Assembly (NCBI GenBank): GCA_964576115.1
Contig: CAZNUA010000009.1
Span: 20,364 to 84,363 of the forward strand
Length of the DNA stretch: 64,000 bases
Direction: 5' to 3'
Origin: an uncultured Gemmatimonadota bacterium
GTDB lineage: Bacteria; Blakebacterota; Blakebacteria; Blakebacterales; Blakebacteraceae
A program made the position numbers and the translations under genes. Below, piece by piece: positions 8,232 through 37,031 of the stretch (position 1 is its first letter; each line of letters opens with the position of its first letter). Under the pieces are notes generated by a model. The model made no database searches, was not told the origin of the DNA, and worked only from the letters and a program-made list of their open reading frames with translations.

Positions 8232-9332
8232 TCAGATATCGTGTAAAGAGTAACTCGTGCTCCGTCCCCCCTCGGGATTCTTTGTCAGAACTCCCCGGTC
8301 GACGAGATCGGTGATATCCCGCCAAGCAGTATCCTGCGAGCAGCCGGCCATCCTGGCCCATTTCGAAGAGGTCAGCCGGCCTTCCAACCCGTCGAGGATA
8401 CGGTTGAGCATGGTGATCTGGCGTTCGGTAAATGATTCGGCGGCGTATTGTTCCCAGAAGCGTGCTTTGCGGGTGCTGTCCATTAAGGTCTCCCCGGCTC
8501 GCTCGATCGCCCGGGCAAAACAGGCCAGGAACCACTCCAGCCAGGGGGTGATATCGAGCGATCCCCGCTGAGTCGACTCCAGCCGGTGATAGTACTCCCG
8601 GCGTTCGGCTCTGATCTGGGATGACAGGCTGTAGAACCGGCGTTCGTTCTGCTCGCCGCGGGCCAGAACCATCTCGGCAATCGCCCGGGCAATCCGACCG
8701 TTCCCGTCCTCGAAGGGATGGATCGTAACGAACCAGAGGTGTGCGATTCCGGCTTTGAGAACCGGATCCGGGTCCGCTTCTGATTCGAACCACTCCAGAA
8801 ATCGCTCGATCTCGGATTCGATCCGGTCGGCCGGCGGGGCCTCGAAGTGAACCTGGCGCCGGCCGATCGGCCCCGAGACGACCTGCATCGGACCTGACCT
8901 GTCATCCCGCCACTGACCGGTCAGGATAGATTGCAGGCCACTGTATTGCGTCGGGAAAAGAGCTGCCTGCCAGCGCTTGAGACGTTCGGCCGTCAGGGGA
9001 CGATTGAAAGAATGAGTGGCATCGAGCATGACCTCGACAATCCCCTCGACATTGCGTTCGACCTGATCCACGCCGCCGATGTCGATCCCGAGCCGGCTGG
9101 CCAGGGAAGAGCGGACCTGGGAGGTCGAGATGATTTCACCTTCGATTTCGCTCGTACTGACGACTTCCTCCGTCAGGGTGGCCAGGACCGACTCCTGTTG
9201 GATCGTAAAACCAAGCGCCTGCATTCGTCCCAACAGTAATCCCTGCTCATGCCGGGTTCGGGCCAGAGGTTGAGTGAGTCGAGACGTGTCGAAAGTGACC
9301 TCGGGCCAGTTCGCGCGCTGCCACAGATACAT
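8232..9332 (-). CDS. Fic family protein with N-terminal DUF4172-like region and C-terminal winged HTH
   Basis: The translation comes from the minus strand (CAT at 9330-9332, TCA at 8232-8234); the + label in the track is wrong. Fic motif HPFEDGNGRIAR, inhibitory motif TSEIEG, wHTH-like end SQDTAWRDITDLVDRGVL..GGRSTSY. Confidence 0.93.
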   Translation of the reverse strand: MYLWQRANWPEVTFDTSRLTQPLARTRHEQGLLLGRMQALGFTIQQESVLATLTEEVVSTSEIEGEIISTSQVRSSLASRLGIDIGGVDQVERNVEGIVEVMLDATHSFNRPLTAERLKRWQAALFPTQYSGLQSILTGQWRDDRSGPMQVVSGPIGRRQVHFEAPPADRIESEIERFLEWFESEADPDPVLKAGIAHLWFVTIHPFEDGNGRIARAIAEMVLARGEQNERRFYSLSSQIRAERREYYHRLESTQRGSLDITPWLEWFLACFARAIERAGETLMDSTRKARFWEQYAAESFTERQITMLNRILDGLEGRLTSSKWARMAGCSQDTAWRDITDLVDRGVLTKNPEGGRSTSYSLHDI

Positions 9333-9521: not shown

Positions 9522-10451
9522 TCAGCGGTAGAGGGGAACGTCGCGTTCGGCCCGCAGGCGGTTGTAGAGCAGGATCTCGGGGCGGTATTCGAAGTGGATG
9601 GTATCGAAGCGGGCCCACTTGCCCCCCCACACGAAGCCGTGCCGCTCGAAGATTTCGATGACCGCCTGCGGCGGGCTCCAGCGCTGATCCAACGGCAGGC
9701 GGTCCCACCGTCCGTACCAGACCCGGGTCCATTCCCAGAAGACCTGCCGGCGGCCGTAACTGCGTGGTTCGAGATCGAGCGCCAGCCCGTAGGCGTGAAA
9801 GCTGCTGATGCCGGTATTCGAGATCGAGCGGGTCTGGAAGGAGTAGACGGTCCTGAGTTCCTCGATCCAGGTTTGCAGGTCGGGATCGGTGCGGGCGGCG
9901 GCGAGCAGTTCTGCTTCGATGGCCGCCAGTTCCTCGGCGCAGAAGGTGTTGATGAAAATGCTGTGCTCGAGGAAACGGGCCGAACGGCCGTGGGTGCGCC
10001 GTTGCGCCTCGTTGCGGCCGAAGATGGCATCCAGAAAATCGGAGGCGATCCGGATTCGCTCGCCGGCCCAGGGCACCGGCTCGGTCAGCGGATCGAGGGG
10101 GTAATCGTAAAAGATCGAATCATAGCGGTGGGCCCATTCCAGGTGGCCGGGTCCCAGCAGCTTGCCGTCCTGGAAGTGAATTCGCTGGCGGCCGATCGCA
10201 AAGACGACGTCATCGGGAGTGGTGATCAGGGAATCGATGAACTCGCCGTAGGTCCGTTCGAGGGCCAGCAGCTGCAGTTCCCGCTCGTCGCTGGTGAAGG
10301 ACGCGGGATCGGCCGCGGCCGGGCCCACGGTTCCGGCCTCGGCCGCTCCGCTCGAGGGCGGCGACAGGTGCAGTGTCAGCAGGCCGGCCAGGCCGACCAT
10401 GATCAGGGCCAGCGCGAGCGCCGCCCGCCGGGAGTACGGGGTCGCTGTCAT
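9522..10451 (-). CDS. M15 family zinc peptidase (D,D-carboxypeptidase / L-Ala-D-Glu peptidase-like), membrane-anchored or secreted
   Basis: SFHAYGLALD (SxHxxGxAxD) and DTIHFEY zinc motifs; hydrophobic N-terminus. Confidence 0.85.
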   Translation of the reverse strand: MTATPYSRRAALALALIMVGLAGLLTLHLSPPSSGAAEAGTVGPAAADPASFTSDERELQLLALERTYGEFIDSLITTPDDVVFAIGRQRIHFQDGKLLGPGHLEWAHRYDSIFYDYPLDPLTEPVPWAGERIRIASDFLDAIFGRNEAQRRTHGRSARFLEHSIFINTFCAEELAAIEAELLAAARTDPDLQTWIEELRTVYSFQTRSISNTGISSFHAYGLALDLEPRSYGRRQVFWEWTRVWYGRWDRLPLDQRWSPPQAVIEIFERHGFVWGGKWARFDTIHFEYRPEILLYNRLRAERDVPLYR

Positions 10452-10615
10452 CGCCGCGGGCCCCCGCGGCGAGCTTGATCTAAGTATCTTAGGGCAGACA
10501 TCAGATCCTGATACGCGGCAGGATCGGAAAGGTTCCGGGGCCGGGACCGCGATCCCCGCAAGGCGCCGTGTCCGTCCGGGCGCCGTCGCATCCGGACGGC
10601 GGCCGTGACCCTGTA

Positions 10616-10644
10616 TTGACCCTGACGGGGCGGCAGTCTATCGT
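10616..10644 (+). promoter_or_regulatory. Sigma70-type leaderless promoter for the dinG-like operon
   Basis: TTGACC (10616-10621), 17 nt, TATCGT (10639-10644), 5 nt, ATG (10650); no SD. Confidence 0.6.
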
Positions 10645-10649
10645 GCGGC

Positions 10650-13247
10650 ATGCGTTCGGATCGTCCTCCGGCCTCGGGGCCGGCTCCCGCCGGCACCCCT
10701 CTCAAACGTTCGACCCGTCCCGCCCGGGAGTGGTTCGAGCCCGCCGTGGCCCGGGCCGTGGCCGCCGAGATCGCGGCCGCGGGCGGGAGCGAGGTGTTCT
10801 TCGTCGGCCGGCTCTCGGATGCCGGCGTCATCGTCGAAGCCGAAGTGGCCGCCCGGGGCAGCCGCGAAGCGGTCCCCGTCATCGCCCGCGCCGTCCGGCC
10901 GGGCGAGATCGTTCTGCACAACCATCCCTCCGGTTCGCTGGCGGCCTCGGGCCCCGATCTCGAGATCGCCGCCGCCTTCGGAAGCGACGGGATCGGCTTC
11001 GCTATCATAGACAACGACTGCCGGAATATCTACGTGGTGGTGGAACCGGGCCGGGCCGACGAGATCCGGCCGGTCGATCTGGCCGAGGTCGAAGCGTTCT
11101 TCGCCCCCGGGGGCCCCCTGAGCCGGACCCTGCCGGGGTACGAACCCCGGACGGTTCAGAGCCACATGGCGCTGGCGGCGGCCGGTGCTTTCAACGACGG
11201 CCGGGTGGTACTCGTAGAAGCCGGCACCGGGGTGGGCAAGAGCCTGGCCTATCTGGTCCCGGCCGTGCTGTGGGCGTGCCGCAATCACCGCCGGGTGGTG
11301 ATCTCGACCAATACCATCAACCTGCAGGAACAGCTCCTGGGATCCGATCTGCCGGTCCTCGAAGAGGCGGGGCTGGAATTCAGGGCGGTTCTGGTCAAGG
11401 GCCGCCGCAACTATGTCTGCCTGCGCAAGGTCGACGAGGTACGGCTCGAACCCGATCTGTTCGCCGAACTCGACGGCGATGTCACAGAACTCGAGCGGCT
11501 CATCACCTGGGCCGGGCGAAGCGAGGACGGCAGTCTGGCCGACCTGCGCCCGCCTCCTCCCGAGCGGGTCTGGGAGAAGGTGGCCACCGAGAGTGACGAC
11601 TGCGCCCGGGCCCGCTGCCCCTGGTTCAACGAGTGCCGTTTCTACCGGGCCCGCCGGCGCGCCGCGACGGCCGATCTGCTGATCGTGAACCACCACCTGC
11701 TCTTCACCGATCTGGCCCTGCGCCAGGCCCTGGGGCCGACCGGCAATACGGCCGTCCTGCCAGCCTACAGCCATGTCATCATCGACGAGGCCCAGCATGT
11801 CGAGGAAACCGCCACGTCTCACTTCGGCACCGACATATCCAGTGTCGGGGTTCAGCGCCAGATCGGACGGCTGCAGCATCGCACCCGTTCCACCCGGGGA
11901 CTGCTCCCGGTGCTGCAGCGCGTCCTGCTGCCCCTGGTCGAAAAAGATCCCCAGGCGGCCCGCGCCCTGGACCGGCTCGAAACCGCAGTACGGCCTGCGT
12001 GCCGGCAGGCCGCCGAAGAGGTGGCGGCCCATTTCTCTCATCTCGACCGGGCTCTGCAGCCGCTGCTCACGGCCTCGGGACCCGAGACCCGCCTGCGCCT
12101 GACCGAGGCGGTCGAGAGCGATCCCGCCTGGGGCGAGGACGCCCGGGTGACCTGCCAGGCACTGCGCCGCGAGCTGGCCAGGCTCGTCGAAGAACTCGAG
12201 AAACTGCTGCGCGACATCGAGCCGCTGCGCGACGAATACGCCGACGACCTCGATTCTCCCCGCCTCGACATCGCCGCCTCGACCGGCCGTCTGAGCCGGG
12301 CCGCAGCGGCCCTGGCCCGCTTTACCGAACCCGACGATAGCGACGCGGAGAGCGTCCGGTGGATCGAAACCTCGCCCCGGCGCCGCGGCACCGCGCGGGT
12401 GGTTCTGGCCACCGCTCCGATCGAGGTCGGCCCCCAGCTGGCCCGGGCCTGCTTCGAGACCGTCGAGGGGGCTCTGCTCTGTTCGGCCACGCTGGCGGTC
12501 GACGGTGACTTCGGGTATACCGCCACCCGTCTCGGGCTCGACCGCCTCGAATCGGGCCGCGTCGTCGCCGATCTGCTCCCCAGCCCTTTCCGCTATGACG
12601 AGCAGACTCTCTTCATGGTTGTCGACGACCTGCCGCTGCCCGATCAGGAGGGGCAGGAGGAGGCGATGGCGGACCTGCTGACCGAGGCGATTGCGGCCGC
12701 CGGGGGGCGCACCCTGGTACTCACCACCGCCTGGGGCGCCCTGCGGCGCCTGCACGAGCGGCTTGCCGAACCCCTGGCCGCGCGGGGGGTGACCCTGCGG
12801 CGTCAGGGCCAGGCTCCCCGGGCCGACCTGCTCGAATCTCTGCGGACCGGAGAGGGCCAGGCTTTGCTGGCCACCGATTCGTTCTGGGAGGGAATCGACG
12901 TACGCGGCGAAGCTCTGAGCCTGGTGGCGCTGACCCGTCTGCCGTTCCGGGTGCCCTCCGAACCGGTTCTGCAGGCCCGCGCCGAACGGCTGGAACGCGA
13001 GGGGGGCAACGCCTTCACGGAATTGCTCCTGCCGATGGCGGTCCTCAAATTCAAGCAGGGCATGGGACGGCTGATCAGGCACCGCAACGATCGCGGGATC
13101 GCCCTGGTGCTGGATCCCCGGATCGTGCGCCGCGCCTATGGCAAGACCTTTGTCGCCTCGCTCGGCTGGGGGGCGCCCGAACCGGTCCCGGCGCGCGAGG
13201 CGCTCGAACGGATCAGGGAGTGGTTTGAAGAGGAGGCGCGTCCATGA
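10650..13247 (+). CDS. DinG/YoaA-family Fe-S SF2 helicase with N-terminal JAB/MPN domain
   Basis: Walker A EAGTGVGKS, motif II DEAQH, four Fe-S Cys (YVC, DDC, RC, EC), FWEGIDVRG, QGMGRLIR. N-terminal HNHPSGSLAASGPD fits the JAMM motif HxHx7Sx2D. Confidence 0.9.
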   Translation: MRSDRPPASGPAPAGTPLKRSTRPAREWFEPAVARAVAAEIAAAGGSEVFFVGRLSDAGVIVEAEVAARGSREAVPVIARAVRPGEIVLHNHPSGSLAASGPDLEIAAAFGSDGIGFAIIDNDCRNIYVVVEPGRADEIRPVDLAEVEAFFAPGGPLSRTLPGYEPRTVQSHMALAAAGAFNDGRVVLVEAGTGVGKSLAYLVPAVLWACRNHRRVVISTNTINLQEQLLGSDLPVLEEAGLEFRAVLVKGRRNYVCLRKVDEVRLEPDLFAELDGDVTELERLITWAGRSEDGSLADLRPPPPERVWEKVATESDDCARARCPWFNECRFYRARRRAATADLLIVNHHLLFTDLALRQALGPTGNTAVLPAYSHVIIDEAQHVEETATSHFGTDISSVGVQRQIGRLQHRTRSTRGLLPVLQRVLLPLVEKDPQAARALDRLETAVRPACRQAAEEVAAHFSHLDRALQPLLTASGPETRLRLTEAVESDPAWGEDARVTCQALRRELARLVEELEKLLRDIEPLRDEYADDLDSPRLDIAASTGRLSRAAAALARFTEPDDSDAESVRWIETSPRRRGTARVVLATAPIEVGPQLARACFETVEGALLCSATLAVDGDFGYTATRLGLDRLESGRVVADLLPSPFRYDEQTLFMVVDDLPLPDQEGQEEAMADLLTEAIAAAGGRTLVLTTAWGALRRLHERLAEPLAARGVTLRRQGQAPRADLLESLRTGEGQALLATDSFWEGIDVRGEALSLVALTRLPFRVPSEPVLQARAERLEREGGNAFTELLLPMAVLKFKQGMGRLIRHRNDRGIALVLDPRIVRRAYGKTFVASLGWGAPEPVPAREALERIREWFEEEARP

Positions 13248-14494
13248 GCGGCGAGCAGACACTCACTGCGGTCGAACGGGCGCGAGCCGGACTTCGCCGG
13301 CTCAAGGTCGAGGCCGAACGTGAGGGCTGGCGGGCCGGCGCGGCGGTGCGCCTCGGGCTGGCGCCGGGACGGGTCAACCTGTTGGGCGAGCATGTCGATT
13401 ACAGCGACGGCTGGGTGATGCCGGTGGCGATCGACCGCCATGTCGCGGCCGCGTATGAGCCCGGCGGCGGGACGCACCTGGTCGTGCACAGCCTCGATTT
13501 CGCCGACACCTTCCGCATCGATCTGACCGAACTCGAAGCCGTGGGCTCCGAGCCCGACCGGTTCGAGGCCCTGGTGGGCGGAGCCCATACCCGCTGGCGG
13601 CGCTACGCCGCCGGGGTCGTCCTCGAACTCGCTGCGGCCGGCGATGTTCCGAGGCCGGGTCTGATGGCGATCGCCGGCGATGTTCCCCTCGGGGCCGGAC
13701 TCTCTTCTTCGGCCGCGCTCGAGGCCGCGCTGTACACCGCCCTGGCCGCCGACCCCGCGGCGAGCCCGGAAGCGGCCCGGCTCTGCCAGCGGGCCGAGAA
13801 CCGTTGGGCGGGGATGCCGTGCGGGATCATGGATCAGTTCGCCAGTTTCATGGGCGAGCGGGAGAAGGTGCTCTACCTGGACTGCCGTACCCTCGAATTC
13901 CGCTGTCTCGCTTTACCCCCCGGGCTCGAACTCACCGTCGTCGACAGCGGGGTGCGGCGCGAGCTGGCAGCTTCGGCCTACCGCGGGCGCCGGCAGGAAA
14001 TCGAAACGGCGTGCGAACTGATCGGCCGCTTCACCGGCCCGATTCAGACCCTGCGCGACGTGCCGGCCGGATCGTTTTCCGCGTTCGAGGACCTGCTCCC
14101 CGAACCGTTGCGCTCCCGGGTCGAACACGTGCTGGGCGGTTTCGACCGGGTCCGGGAGGGAGTCCGGGTTCTGGCCCTGGGGCAGGGCGAAGCCTTCGGC
14201 GAGCTGATGACGGCCTGCCACCGCTCTCTGGCCGAACTCTATGCGGTGAGTATTCCCGAACTGGATCTGATCGTCGCCTCGGCGCTCGAGGTCGAGGGGG
14301 TTCTCGGGGCCCGCCTGACCGGAGCCGGTTTCGGCGGCTGCTGCGTCGTGCTGCATCGTCCGGATTGCACCGCCGAGCTGACCGGGAGGATCTCCTCGGC
14401 CCTTCGCGAGCGCTTCGACATCGAGCCGCTCTGCCATCATCTTGCTGTCGCCGACGGAGCCCGCCGGCTGGAACCGGAAGGAGAGGGCGCATGA
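13244..14494 (+). CDS. galK: Galactokinase (GHMP kinase)
   Basis: PGRVNLLGEHVDY, PLGAGLSSSAA, CGIMDQ, GARLTGAGFGGC; ATGA overlap with the helicase gene. Confidence 0.9.
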   Translation: MSGEQTLTAVERARAGLRRLKVEAEREGWRAGAAVRLGLAPGRVNLLGEHVDYSDGWVMPVAIDRHVAAAYEPGGGTHLVVHSLDFADTFRIDLTELEAVGSEPDRFEALVGGAHTRWRRYAAGVVLELAAAGDVPRPGLMAIAGDVPLGAGLSSSAALEAALYTALAADPAASPEAARLCQRAENRWAGMPCGIMDQFASFMGEREKVLYLDCRTLEFRCLALPPGLELTVVDSGVRRELAASAYRGRRQEIETACELIGRFTGPIQTLRDVPAGSFSAFEDLLPEPLRSRVEHVLGGFDRVREGVRVLALGQGEAFGELMTACHRSLAELYAVSIPELDLIVASALEVEGVLGARLTGAGFGGCCVVLHRPDCTAELTGRISSALRERFDIEPLCHHLAVADGARRLEPEGEGA

Positions 14495-36212: not shown

Positions 36213-36332
36213 TCGATCGTTCCCCCTGACGCCCCCCGGCTGTGCCCCCCGAACCCCCGTACTGCGTCCCGCGCCTTCGAGTTCTCGGGCGCAGATACCC
36301 GCCCCCGCCGACCGCTCCCCGTGGAGGTATCC

Positions 36333-37031
36333 ATGTCCGATCCGGTCGTGCACACTCCTCTGAGCCAATGGCCCACGGGCGAGGGGCCGCGCGAGCGCCT
36401 GCTCGCGCACGGTCCCGCCTCGCTCTCGACCGCCCAGCTTCTGGCGGTGCTGCTGCGTACCGGCGGCCGGCGGGGTCAGACCGCTCTGGAACTCGCTCGC
36501 CGGGTCATCGCCCATTTCGGCGGCCTGGCCGAGCTGGCCCATGCAGGTCCCGAGGAGCTGCAGGCGATCCCCGGCGTCGGTCCCGCCGGAGCGGCCGCCG
36601 TCGCCGCCGCCCTGGAACTTGCCCGCCGCGCCGATCCCGCCGACCGCCGCCGCCGGCCGGTCTTCGCCTCGGCCGCCGAGGCCGCGCACTGGCTCATGCC
36701 GCGCCTGGCCCATCTGCGCAAGGAGCACTTCGTGGCTCTGCTCCTGGACGGCAAGAACCGGCTCATCCGGCAGGTGCGTATCTCCGAGGGCAGTCTCTCC
36801 TCCTCGATCGTGCATCCCCGCGAAGCCTTTCTGCCGGCGGTGCGGGCTTCGGCTGCAGCGGTGATCTTCGCGCACAACCATCCCTCGGGAGATCCCGGCC
36901 CGAGCCGGGAGGATCTGAGCGTTACCGAGCAGCTCCGTCAGGCCGGAGGCATCCTCGGCATCGCCGTGCTGGATCATATCATTATCGGCGCCGGCGAGTT
37001 CTACAGCCTGGCTCAGAACGGACGGCTCTGA
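36333..37031 (+). CDS. radC: RadC/UPF0758 JAB-domain protein
   Basis: PRERLL, HhH GVGPA, VHPRE, HNHPSGDPGPSRED, LDHIIIG; SD GGAGGT. Confidence 0.95.
   Translation: MSDPVVHTPLSQWPTGEGPRERLLAHGPASLSTAQLLAVLLRTGGRRGQTALELARRVIAHFGGLAELAHAGPEELQAIPGVGPAGAAAVAAALELARRADPADRRRRPVFASAAEAAHWLMPRLAHLRKEHFVALLLDGKNRLIRQVRISEGSLSSSIVHPREAFLPAVRASAAAVIFAHNHPSGDPGPSREDLSVTEQLRQAGGILGIAVLDHIIIGAGEFYSLAQNGRL

Follow-up and report, generated by a model that had tools for sequence, protein, structure and literature searches.

A RadC-type JAB domain joined to a DinG/YoaA-type iron-sulfur helicase in a Gemmatimonadota genome

Proteins in which a RadC-type JAB domain is fused to a DinG/RAD3 helicase were reported by Iyer, Zhang, Rogozin and Aravind in 2011, together with the proposal that the JAB domain sits in a slot otherwise held by a nuclease (PMC3239186). 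A 2025 review names the group RadC-like DinG (section 3.8), takes the Desulfuromonas soudanensis protein A0A0M4DKS9 as its exemplar and states that no experiments on these proteins exist (PMC11981726). Neither paper names Gemmatimonadota for RadC-like DinG, and the Gemmatimonadales representative in the review is a plain DinG (PMC11981726). Here we describe such a fusion from an uncultured Gemmatimonadota bacterium, encoded at positions 10650-13247 (plus strand) of a 64,000-nucleotide stretch of contig CAZNUA010000009.1 (assembly GCA_964576115.1), which we call the window. An earlier reading of this DNA made from its letters alone, the sequence-only reading, had described a DinG-family iron-sulfur (Fe-S) helicase fused to an intact JAB domain, guessed that the fusion had been noticed in comparative genomics, and knew of no biochemical characterization; the two papers bear out both of these expectations. 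We are highly confident that the product is a RadC-type JAB/MPN+ domain fused N-terminally to a DinG/YoaA-type superfamily 2 (SF2) helicase with a four-cysteine Fe-S domain, and that it belongs to the catalogued RadC-like DinG group.

The window protein has the same domain order as that group, the same E...HxH...S..D site, the four-cysteine Fe-S domain, the motor motifs and the C-terminal helix. One relative, P0055, is 44% identical to it over 96% of the query and has almost the same N-terminus as the D. soudanensis exemplar (Figure S8 of the review). Compared with the group as published, the clade of the window protein adds an N-terminal extension of 20-25 amino acids, containing PLKRxxRPxxEW, and a DEAQH version of motif II. 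The extension motif (residues ~17-28) is kept in a subset of close Gemmatimonadota-like relatives and is absent from the Desulfuromonadales proteins; within 10650-10730, residues 1-19 are modeled as disordered. The closest named relatives of the protein are from Gemmatimonadota. The literature thus already contains the architecture, its conserved residues and the argument for a nuclease slot, and as a discovery the locus adds little to a group that is catalogued and named. What is new is that the group extends to Gemmatimonadota, that its JAB subtype is found almost only as a fusion, and that the fusion coexists with a canonical RadC.

The open reading frame (ORF) at 10650-13247 is uninterrupted and translates to 865 amino acids, in the order JAB domain, linker and Fe-S DinG helicase. 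Scanning the full protein against Pfam returned Helicase_C_2 (4e-39), DEAD (4e-8) and RadC. A full-length AlphaFold2 model reached a predicted local distance difference test score (pLDDT) of 87.9 and a predicted template modeling score of 0.83, and a fold search with this model returned E. coli DinG (6fwr) at the top (E 3e-37, template modeling score 0.74 on the target), followed by the S. aureus exonuclease-DinG and then by CasDinG and XPD. No solved structure that combines a JAB domain with a DinG-type helicase was found in the structure searches. A gene-fusion artefact or misassembly can be ruled out, given that the architecture recurs in hundreds of full-length homologues. The opposite strand carries an ORF for 874 amino acids (10638-13262, minus strand) without homologue support of the kind seen for the plus-strand frame, and it is presumably a shadow ORF.

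The JAB domain spans 10731-11054 (residues ~28-135) and comprises three helices and five strands. It contains HNHPSGSLAASGPD (10917-10958, residues 90-103), an exact match to the predicted zinc-binding motif HxHx7SxxD formed by H90, H92, S100 and D103. The upstream glutamate of GSEVFF, Glu48 (10791-10793), is the predicted JAMM general base and lies just N-terminal of the first strand (49-55) in the model. The motif and the glutamate are therefore where the sequence-only reading had placed them. Scanned alone, residues 1-160 match the Pfam RadC model PF04002 at 23.4 bits (cut-off 22.1), and PF04002 also matches 26 of 27 aligned homologous N-termini. A profile built from homologous N-termini and searched against the PDB recovered the RadC structure 2qlc (5.9e-6) and, weakly, AfJAMM. 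The AlphaFold2 model of residues 1-160 (pLDDT 89.9) shows a minimal JAB core, ~105 residues long, in which H90 and H92 close the third strand and S100 and D103 open the following helix. When this model was compared with the PDB using Foldseek, five chains of 2qlc ranked first (E 2.5e-5), followed by Rpn11, PfJAMM1, CSN5, BubCD, a Caldiarchaeum Rpn11 homologue and AfJAMM, so the N-terminus does model as a JAB fold, as had been proposed. Apart from RadC, all of the characterized structural neighbors belong to the JAMM/MPN+ peptidase group, and no nuclease appeared among the Foldseek matches. The N-terminal domain is a RadC-type JAB that, judged by its motif and its model, retains an intact one-zinc hydrolase site (Glu48, His90, His92, Ser100 and Asp103), with the zinc content a prediction.

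We then asked how well this site is kept across the group. A search of a large protein database gave 7351 relatives, the best 120 of which, all 823-933 amino acids long, were used for alignment. The motif occupies the identical alignment position in 119 of these 120 full-length homologues and so is not a chance occurrence. E48, H90, N91, P93, G95, S100 and D103 are invariant in all 120, while H92 is found in 119 and replaced by Q in one. Compared with distant relatives, identity is 45% in the JAB domain, 44% in the Fe-S domain and 47% in motor domain 2, but only 27% in the Arch domain and 27% in the linker. These figures bear on the idea that the JAB domain is non-catalytic and serves in docking, regulation or DNA binding, for instance in place of the HolC-binding role of YoaA. 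Fusobacterial versions that lack the zinc ligands (Iyer et al., PMC3239186), the single H92Q homologue and the reported lack of HolC in organisms that carry the fusion (PMC11981726) all fit this idea. However, the catalytic residues are kept in 119/120 homologues and in 149/149 representatives of a second search (below), and the domain is conserved as much as the motor domains, which is the pattern expected for an enzyme rather than a scaffold. We therefore consider a purely non-catalytic role very improbable; the JAMM-type site is instead under strong purifying selection, in line with the conservation among orthologues that the sequence-only reading had predicted.

The second search, an exhaustive one with a profile of the JAB domain, returned 1338 cluster representatives, 295 of them with E ≤ 1e-30, and the best 149 new ones were analyzed. 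The exact motif is present in 146 of these 149, and the other three keep the residues with a longer loop between HNHP and SxxD. Seventy-nine are full-length fusions and 70 are short. Most of the short ones terminate within helicase sequence or in frameshifted sequence, and we read them as fusion fragments; a standalone form of this JAB subtype was rejected on the same grounds. From these sequences, the JAB subtype of RadC-like DinG is essentially confined to helicase fusions and has retained its active site. A survey of the architecture found the fusion in at least 596 species-representative genomes across many phyla, including Gemmatimonadota, Spirochaetota, Geobacter and other Desulfuromonadales, Thermodesulfobacteriota, Dadabacteria and KSB1, as well as Nitrospirota, Nitrospinota, Bacillota, Deferribacteres, Binatia and Hydrogenedentota.

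The same window also encodes a canonical RadC, ~23 kb downstream of the fusion gene. The sequence-only reading had noted a standalone RadC with the same motif at 36333, and this gene is real: the ORF at 36321-37031 (plus strand), with an internal ATG at 36333, encodes UPF0758_N, HhH and RadC (147 bits) domains and carries the motif HNHPSGDPGPSRED. Its identity to the fused JAB is just 32% over 69 amino acids, so the fused domain does not seem to be a substitute for RadC. Because the two coexist in one genome, they do not look redundant either.

A linker (11055-11129, residues 136-160), which forms two short helices in the models, connects the JAB domain to the helicase. The motifs expected of a helicase and the four Fe-S cysteines, which had likewise been read from the sequence, are all present. 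The Walker A motif AGTGVGKS (11220-11243, residues 191-198) has its A, G, T, G, G and K invariant in the 120 homologues, as are the four cysteines C257, C318, C323 and C329 of the Fe-S domain (11400-11654), which by analogy with the DinG/XPD family are predicted to bind an Fe-S cluster. Motif II reads DEAQH (11784-11798, residues 379-383), with D379 and E380 invariant; most relatives have DEAHH or DEAHN, and position 382 is Q in 8/120, including the window protein, and H in 112/120. The Arch domain (11850-12449, residues ~401-600) shows helices at 434-472 and 492-559 in the full-length model. The SAT motif follows at residues 612-614, and the invariant motif VI, QGMGRLIRHR, at residues 803-812 falls within Helicase_C_2, the second motor domain (12684-13163, residues 679-838; PF13307, 4.2e-39). 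Taking motifs and model together, the two motor domains, with their predicted ATP- and DNA-binding motifs, and the Arch domain are of the DinG type. Among hidden Markov models the best match is the NCBIfam YoaA model (NF053712, 530.9 bits, cut-off 680), and the protein also matches the Bacillus-type exonuclease-DinG model NF005981 (439 bits, cut-off 789), the E. coli DinG model (372 bits, cut-off 598) and TIGR01407 (318 bits, cut-off 548). The YoaA, DinG and exonuclease-DinG (ExoDinG) alignments all begin at about query residue 156-164, leaving the exonuclease part of the ExoDinG models unmatched.

Several observations weigh against our assignment of the product as a RadC-type JAB enzyme on a DinG/YoaA-type helicase. 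The RadC match on the full-length protein scores 18.2 bits, under the cut-off of 22.1, which only a scan of the isolated domain exceeds. Motif II is DEAQ and not DEAH. Since the YoaA and DinG equivalog scores lie under their cut-offs, the protein is not an orthologue of either characterized helicase. With respect to function, E. coli radC mutants are normally sensitive to DNA damage, as cited in the review (PMC11981726), and our literature searches found no demonstrated activity for any RadC-family member, fused or free, and no experimental work on RadC or JAB-DinG.

What might such a protein do? Like E. coli DinG, the helicase would bind single-stranded DNA and use ATP to translocate along it in the 5' to 3' direction. 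Translocation would bring the tethered, putative zinc hydrolase to an obstacle on that strand or to its end, where the hydrolase would act in cis on a substrate delivered by the helicase. We infer from this arrangement that the protein is a self-contained chromosomal enzyme of DNA repair or of replication obstacles, working outside defense or ubiquitin-like systems. For the bond that the JAB domain cuts, we tentatively place an amide or C-N bond in protein or peptide on DNA first, at somewhat under an even chance; cleavage of the DNA backbone seems rather unlikely, and the remainder goes to another substrate or none.

The reading we lean toward, short of believing it outright, makes the JAB domain an amidohydrolase or peptidase, tethered to DNA, that cleaves protein or peptide stuck covalently on single-stranded DNA, a single-chain analogue of FANCJ and SPRTN. 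The complete JAMM set is invariant, including the serine and glutamate that serve amide hydrolysis in characterized JAMM enzymes, and the structural neighbors other than RadC point to peptidases. In addition, the domain is acidic, with a median isoelectric point of 4.7 across the 120 homologues, and is therefore unlikely to bind DNA alone. There is also a precedent on DNA-protein crosslinks, as FANCJ unfolds the crosslink for SPRTN to cut (PMC12279946). By extension, RadC-like DinG may be a self-contained enzyme for clearing DNA-protein crosslinks or protein roadblocks, in which the helicase unfolds or presents the protein and the JAB domain hydrolyzes it, a proposal that we regard as doubtful at present. 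Known JAMM enzymes, however, cut isopeptide bonds behind ubiquitin-like tails and not general polypeptides, and according to Iyer et al. the groove for a ubiquitin tail is missing from RadC-type JABs (PMC3239186). Most bonds in DNA-protein crosslinks are not amides, and these proteins are not known to be linked genetically to crosslink repair.

Gene neighborhoods also bear on a peptidase. At 80 loci, we clustered every ORF lying up to 6 kb upstream or downstream of the helicase. Apart from the helicase and its shadow ORFs, no family occurred as a conserved partner in more than 15 of these loci, and the most widely shared neighbor (15/80) reflects Geobacter-specific synteny. No ubiquitin-like, beta-grasp, E1-like or nuclease gene was linked to the helicase in the loci examined, and the absence of ubiquitin-like and E1-like genes counts against a JAMM peptidase of the known kind. 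In Desulfuromonas AOP6 alone, the downstream side holds a NUDIX gene. The search for a conserved partner, whether ubiquitin-like, E1, nuclease or NUDIX, thus uncovered only lineage-specific synteny.

The principal competitor to a DNA-tethered peptidase is the proposal of Iyer et al., which the sequence-only reading had also listed beside removal of protein or peptide adducts from DNA, that the JAB domain is a nuclease which has displaced the DnaQ-like 3'-5' exonuclease of closely related DinG helicases, making the protein a helicase-nuclease. ExoDinG and EndoDinG carry their nuclease domains at the N-terminus, the position that the JAB domain occupies here (PMC11981726, PMC3239186), and the helicase part is close to the exonuclease-bearing proteins, both in its 439-bit score to the Bacillus-type model and in having the S. 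aureus ExoDinG as second-best fold match. RadC JABs are fused elsewhere to HhH, primase and ArdC-N DNA-binding modules (PMC3239186), the RadC of the window has an HhH domain, and the JAB belongs to a deaminase-like fold whose members act mostly on nucleotides (PMC3239186). As a hypothesis, then, a JAB in the nuclease slot is supported. Yet no JAB-fold nuclease has been demonstrated, and fold searches, both ours with Foldseek and those of the review (PMC11981726), returned no nuclease. The unchanged JAMM serine would not obviously be needed for phosphodiester cleavage, the acidity of the domain is unhelpful to a nuclease, and association with DNA equally fits a DNA-targeted peptidase. We therefore judge a nuclease possible but unlikely, and continue to prefer, with the reservations above, a peptidase tethered to DNA.

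The gene sits in what its neighbors mark as a core chromosomal context. The helicase stop codon and the start codon of a GHMP/galactokinase-like kinase gene overlap in the sequence ATGA (13244-13247). This kinase gene heads a downstream run to ~23000 that continues with hydantoinase A, a Cys/Met pyridoxal phosphate enzyme, PfkB and hydantoinase B. In three related lineages (62-80% identity) this metabolic run is kept and the upstream side is variable, and in two of the three a carbamoyl-phosphate synthase follows hydantoinase B. The Desulfuromonadales loci have gene contexts that differ from the Gemmatimonadota-like ones. A repair helicase at the head of a metabolic run is odd, and is probably just synteny.

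On the upstream side, the divergent gene at 9522-10451 (minus strand) encodes a Peptidase_M15_4 protein, D-Ala-D-Ala carboxypeptidase-like, with a hydrophobic N-terminus. Two positions upstream of the helicase, in the variable stretch, lies a gene for a DUF4172 and Fic protein (8232-9332, minus strand) with the motif HPFEDGNGR, which matches the PADLOC single-gene defense model SoFic at 165 bits (E 7e-49). This SoFic-like gene, together with a 417-bit match of the helicase to the PADLOC model 'typeIV_DinG, CAS-IV-A associated', could suggest a defense helicase, either a type IV CRISPR CasDinG or part of a defense island. The NCBIfam equivalog for Csf4 (TIGR03117), however, scores 115 bits, far under its cut-off of 400, and no cas gene was found within 10 kb on either side in the loci examined. 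Relatives have neither the Fic nor the M15 gene at that position, whereas the downstream metabolic genes are kept, and no neighbor is conserved across the 80 loci. We have accordingly rejected a defense or CRISPR role, which in this core-metabolic context is extremely improbable.

The intergenic region holds two putative regulatory elements. A promoter-like site, TTGACC-17 nt-TATCGT (10616-10644, plus strand), ends 5 nucleotides before the ATG; it has 9 of 12 matches in a consensus scan that yields 0.1 sites in shuffled sequence. At L008, a locus in a related Gemmatimonadota genome, the two hexamers are identical, as is all of the sequence between the second one and the ATG. No Shine-Dalgarno sequence is evident ahead of the helicase ATG in the window (10616-10649). 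Together, these features suggest that the helicase mRNA is possibly leaderless. Further upstream, the GC-rich divergent region contains a perfect AT-rich palindrome, CTAAG-TAT-CTTAG (10480-10492), which recurs without a single change ahead of the L008 orthologue and may be an operator. A search for an SOS box upstream of the helicase yielded only this conserved palindrome, which is not assignable to LexA.

RadC is a near-universal family and among the most widespread bacterial proteins without a known activity, and the best hint that context offers about the role of its JAB domain is the helicase fusion. Because its predicted active site is intact, it is strongly conserved and it has no partner gene, the fusion is a clean candidate for a first assay of a RadC-type JAB, whether as a nuclease or as a DNA-tethered peptidase. 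If true, the crosslink-clearing proposal would give the RadC family its first biochemical activity and provide a one-polypeptide counterpart of FANCJ and SPRTN.

FANCJ belongs to the Fe-S (XPD/DinG) helicase family. The FANCJ and SPRTN pair resembles the fusion in combining a helicase with a zinc metalloprotease on single-stranded DNA, but the likeness is no more than one of function: FANCJ and SPRTN are separate polypeptides, and the SPRTN protease is a zincin and not a JAB. Closer in fold are the JAMM/MPN+ isopeptidases (Rpn11, CSN5, AMSH, PfJAMM1, AfJAMM and the bacterial Cap3/BubCD), which share the complete catalytic motif with the fused JAB; unlike them, the fused domain is minimal (~105 residues), attached to a helicase and free of linked genes for ubiquitin-like substrates or conjugation. 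Canonical RadC (UPF0758, PF04002; 2qlc from Chlorobium tepidum) has the JAB fold and the HNHPSG..PS..D motif in common with the fused domain. It places a UPF0758_N/HhH domain before a C-terminal JAB, whereas the fusion protein lacks UPF0758_N/HhH by Pfam and carries a helicase instead. On the helicase side, E. coli DinG (6fwr/6fws) and YoaA have the same Fe-S SF2 architecture, although both are without an N-terminal enzymatic domain. ExoDinG of S. aureus and B. subtilis (8zef/9ii8) does place a hydrolase before a closely related helicase core, as here, but its N-terminal domain is a DnaQ-like DEDDh domain of RNase H-like fold, a demonstrated 3'-5' exonuclease that is unrelated to the JAB fold.

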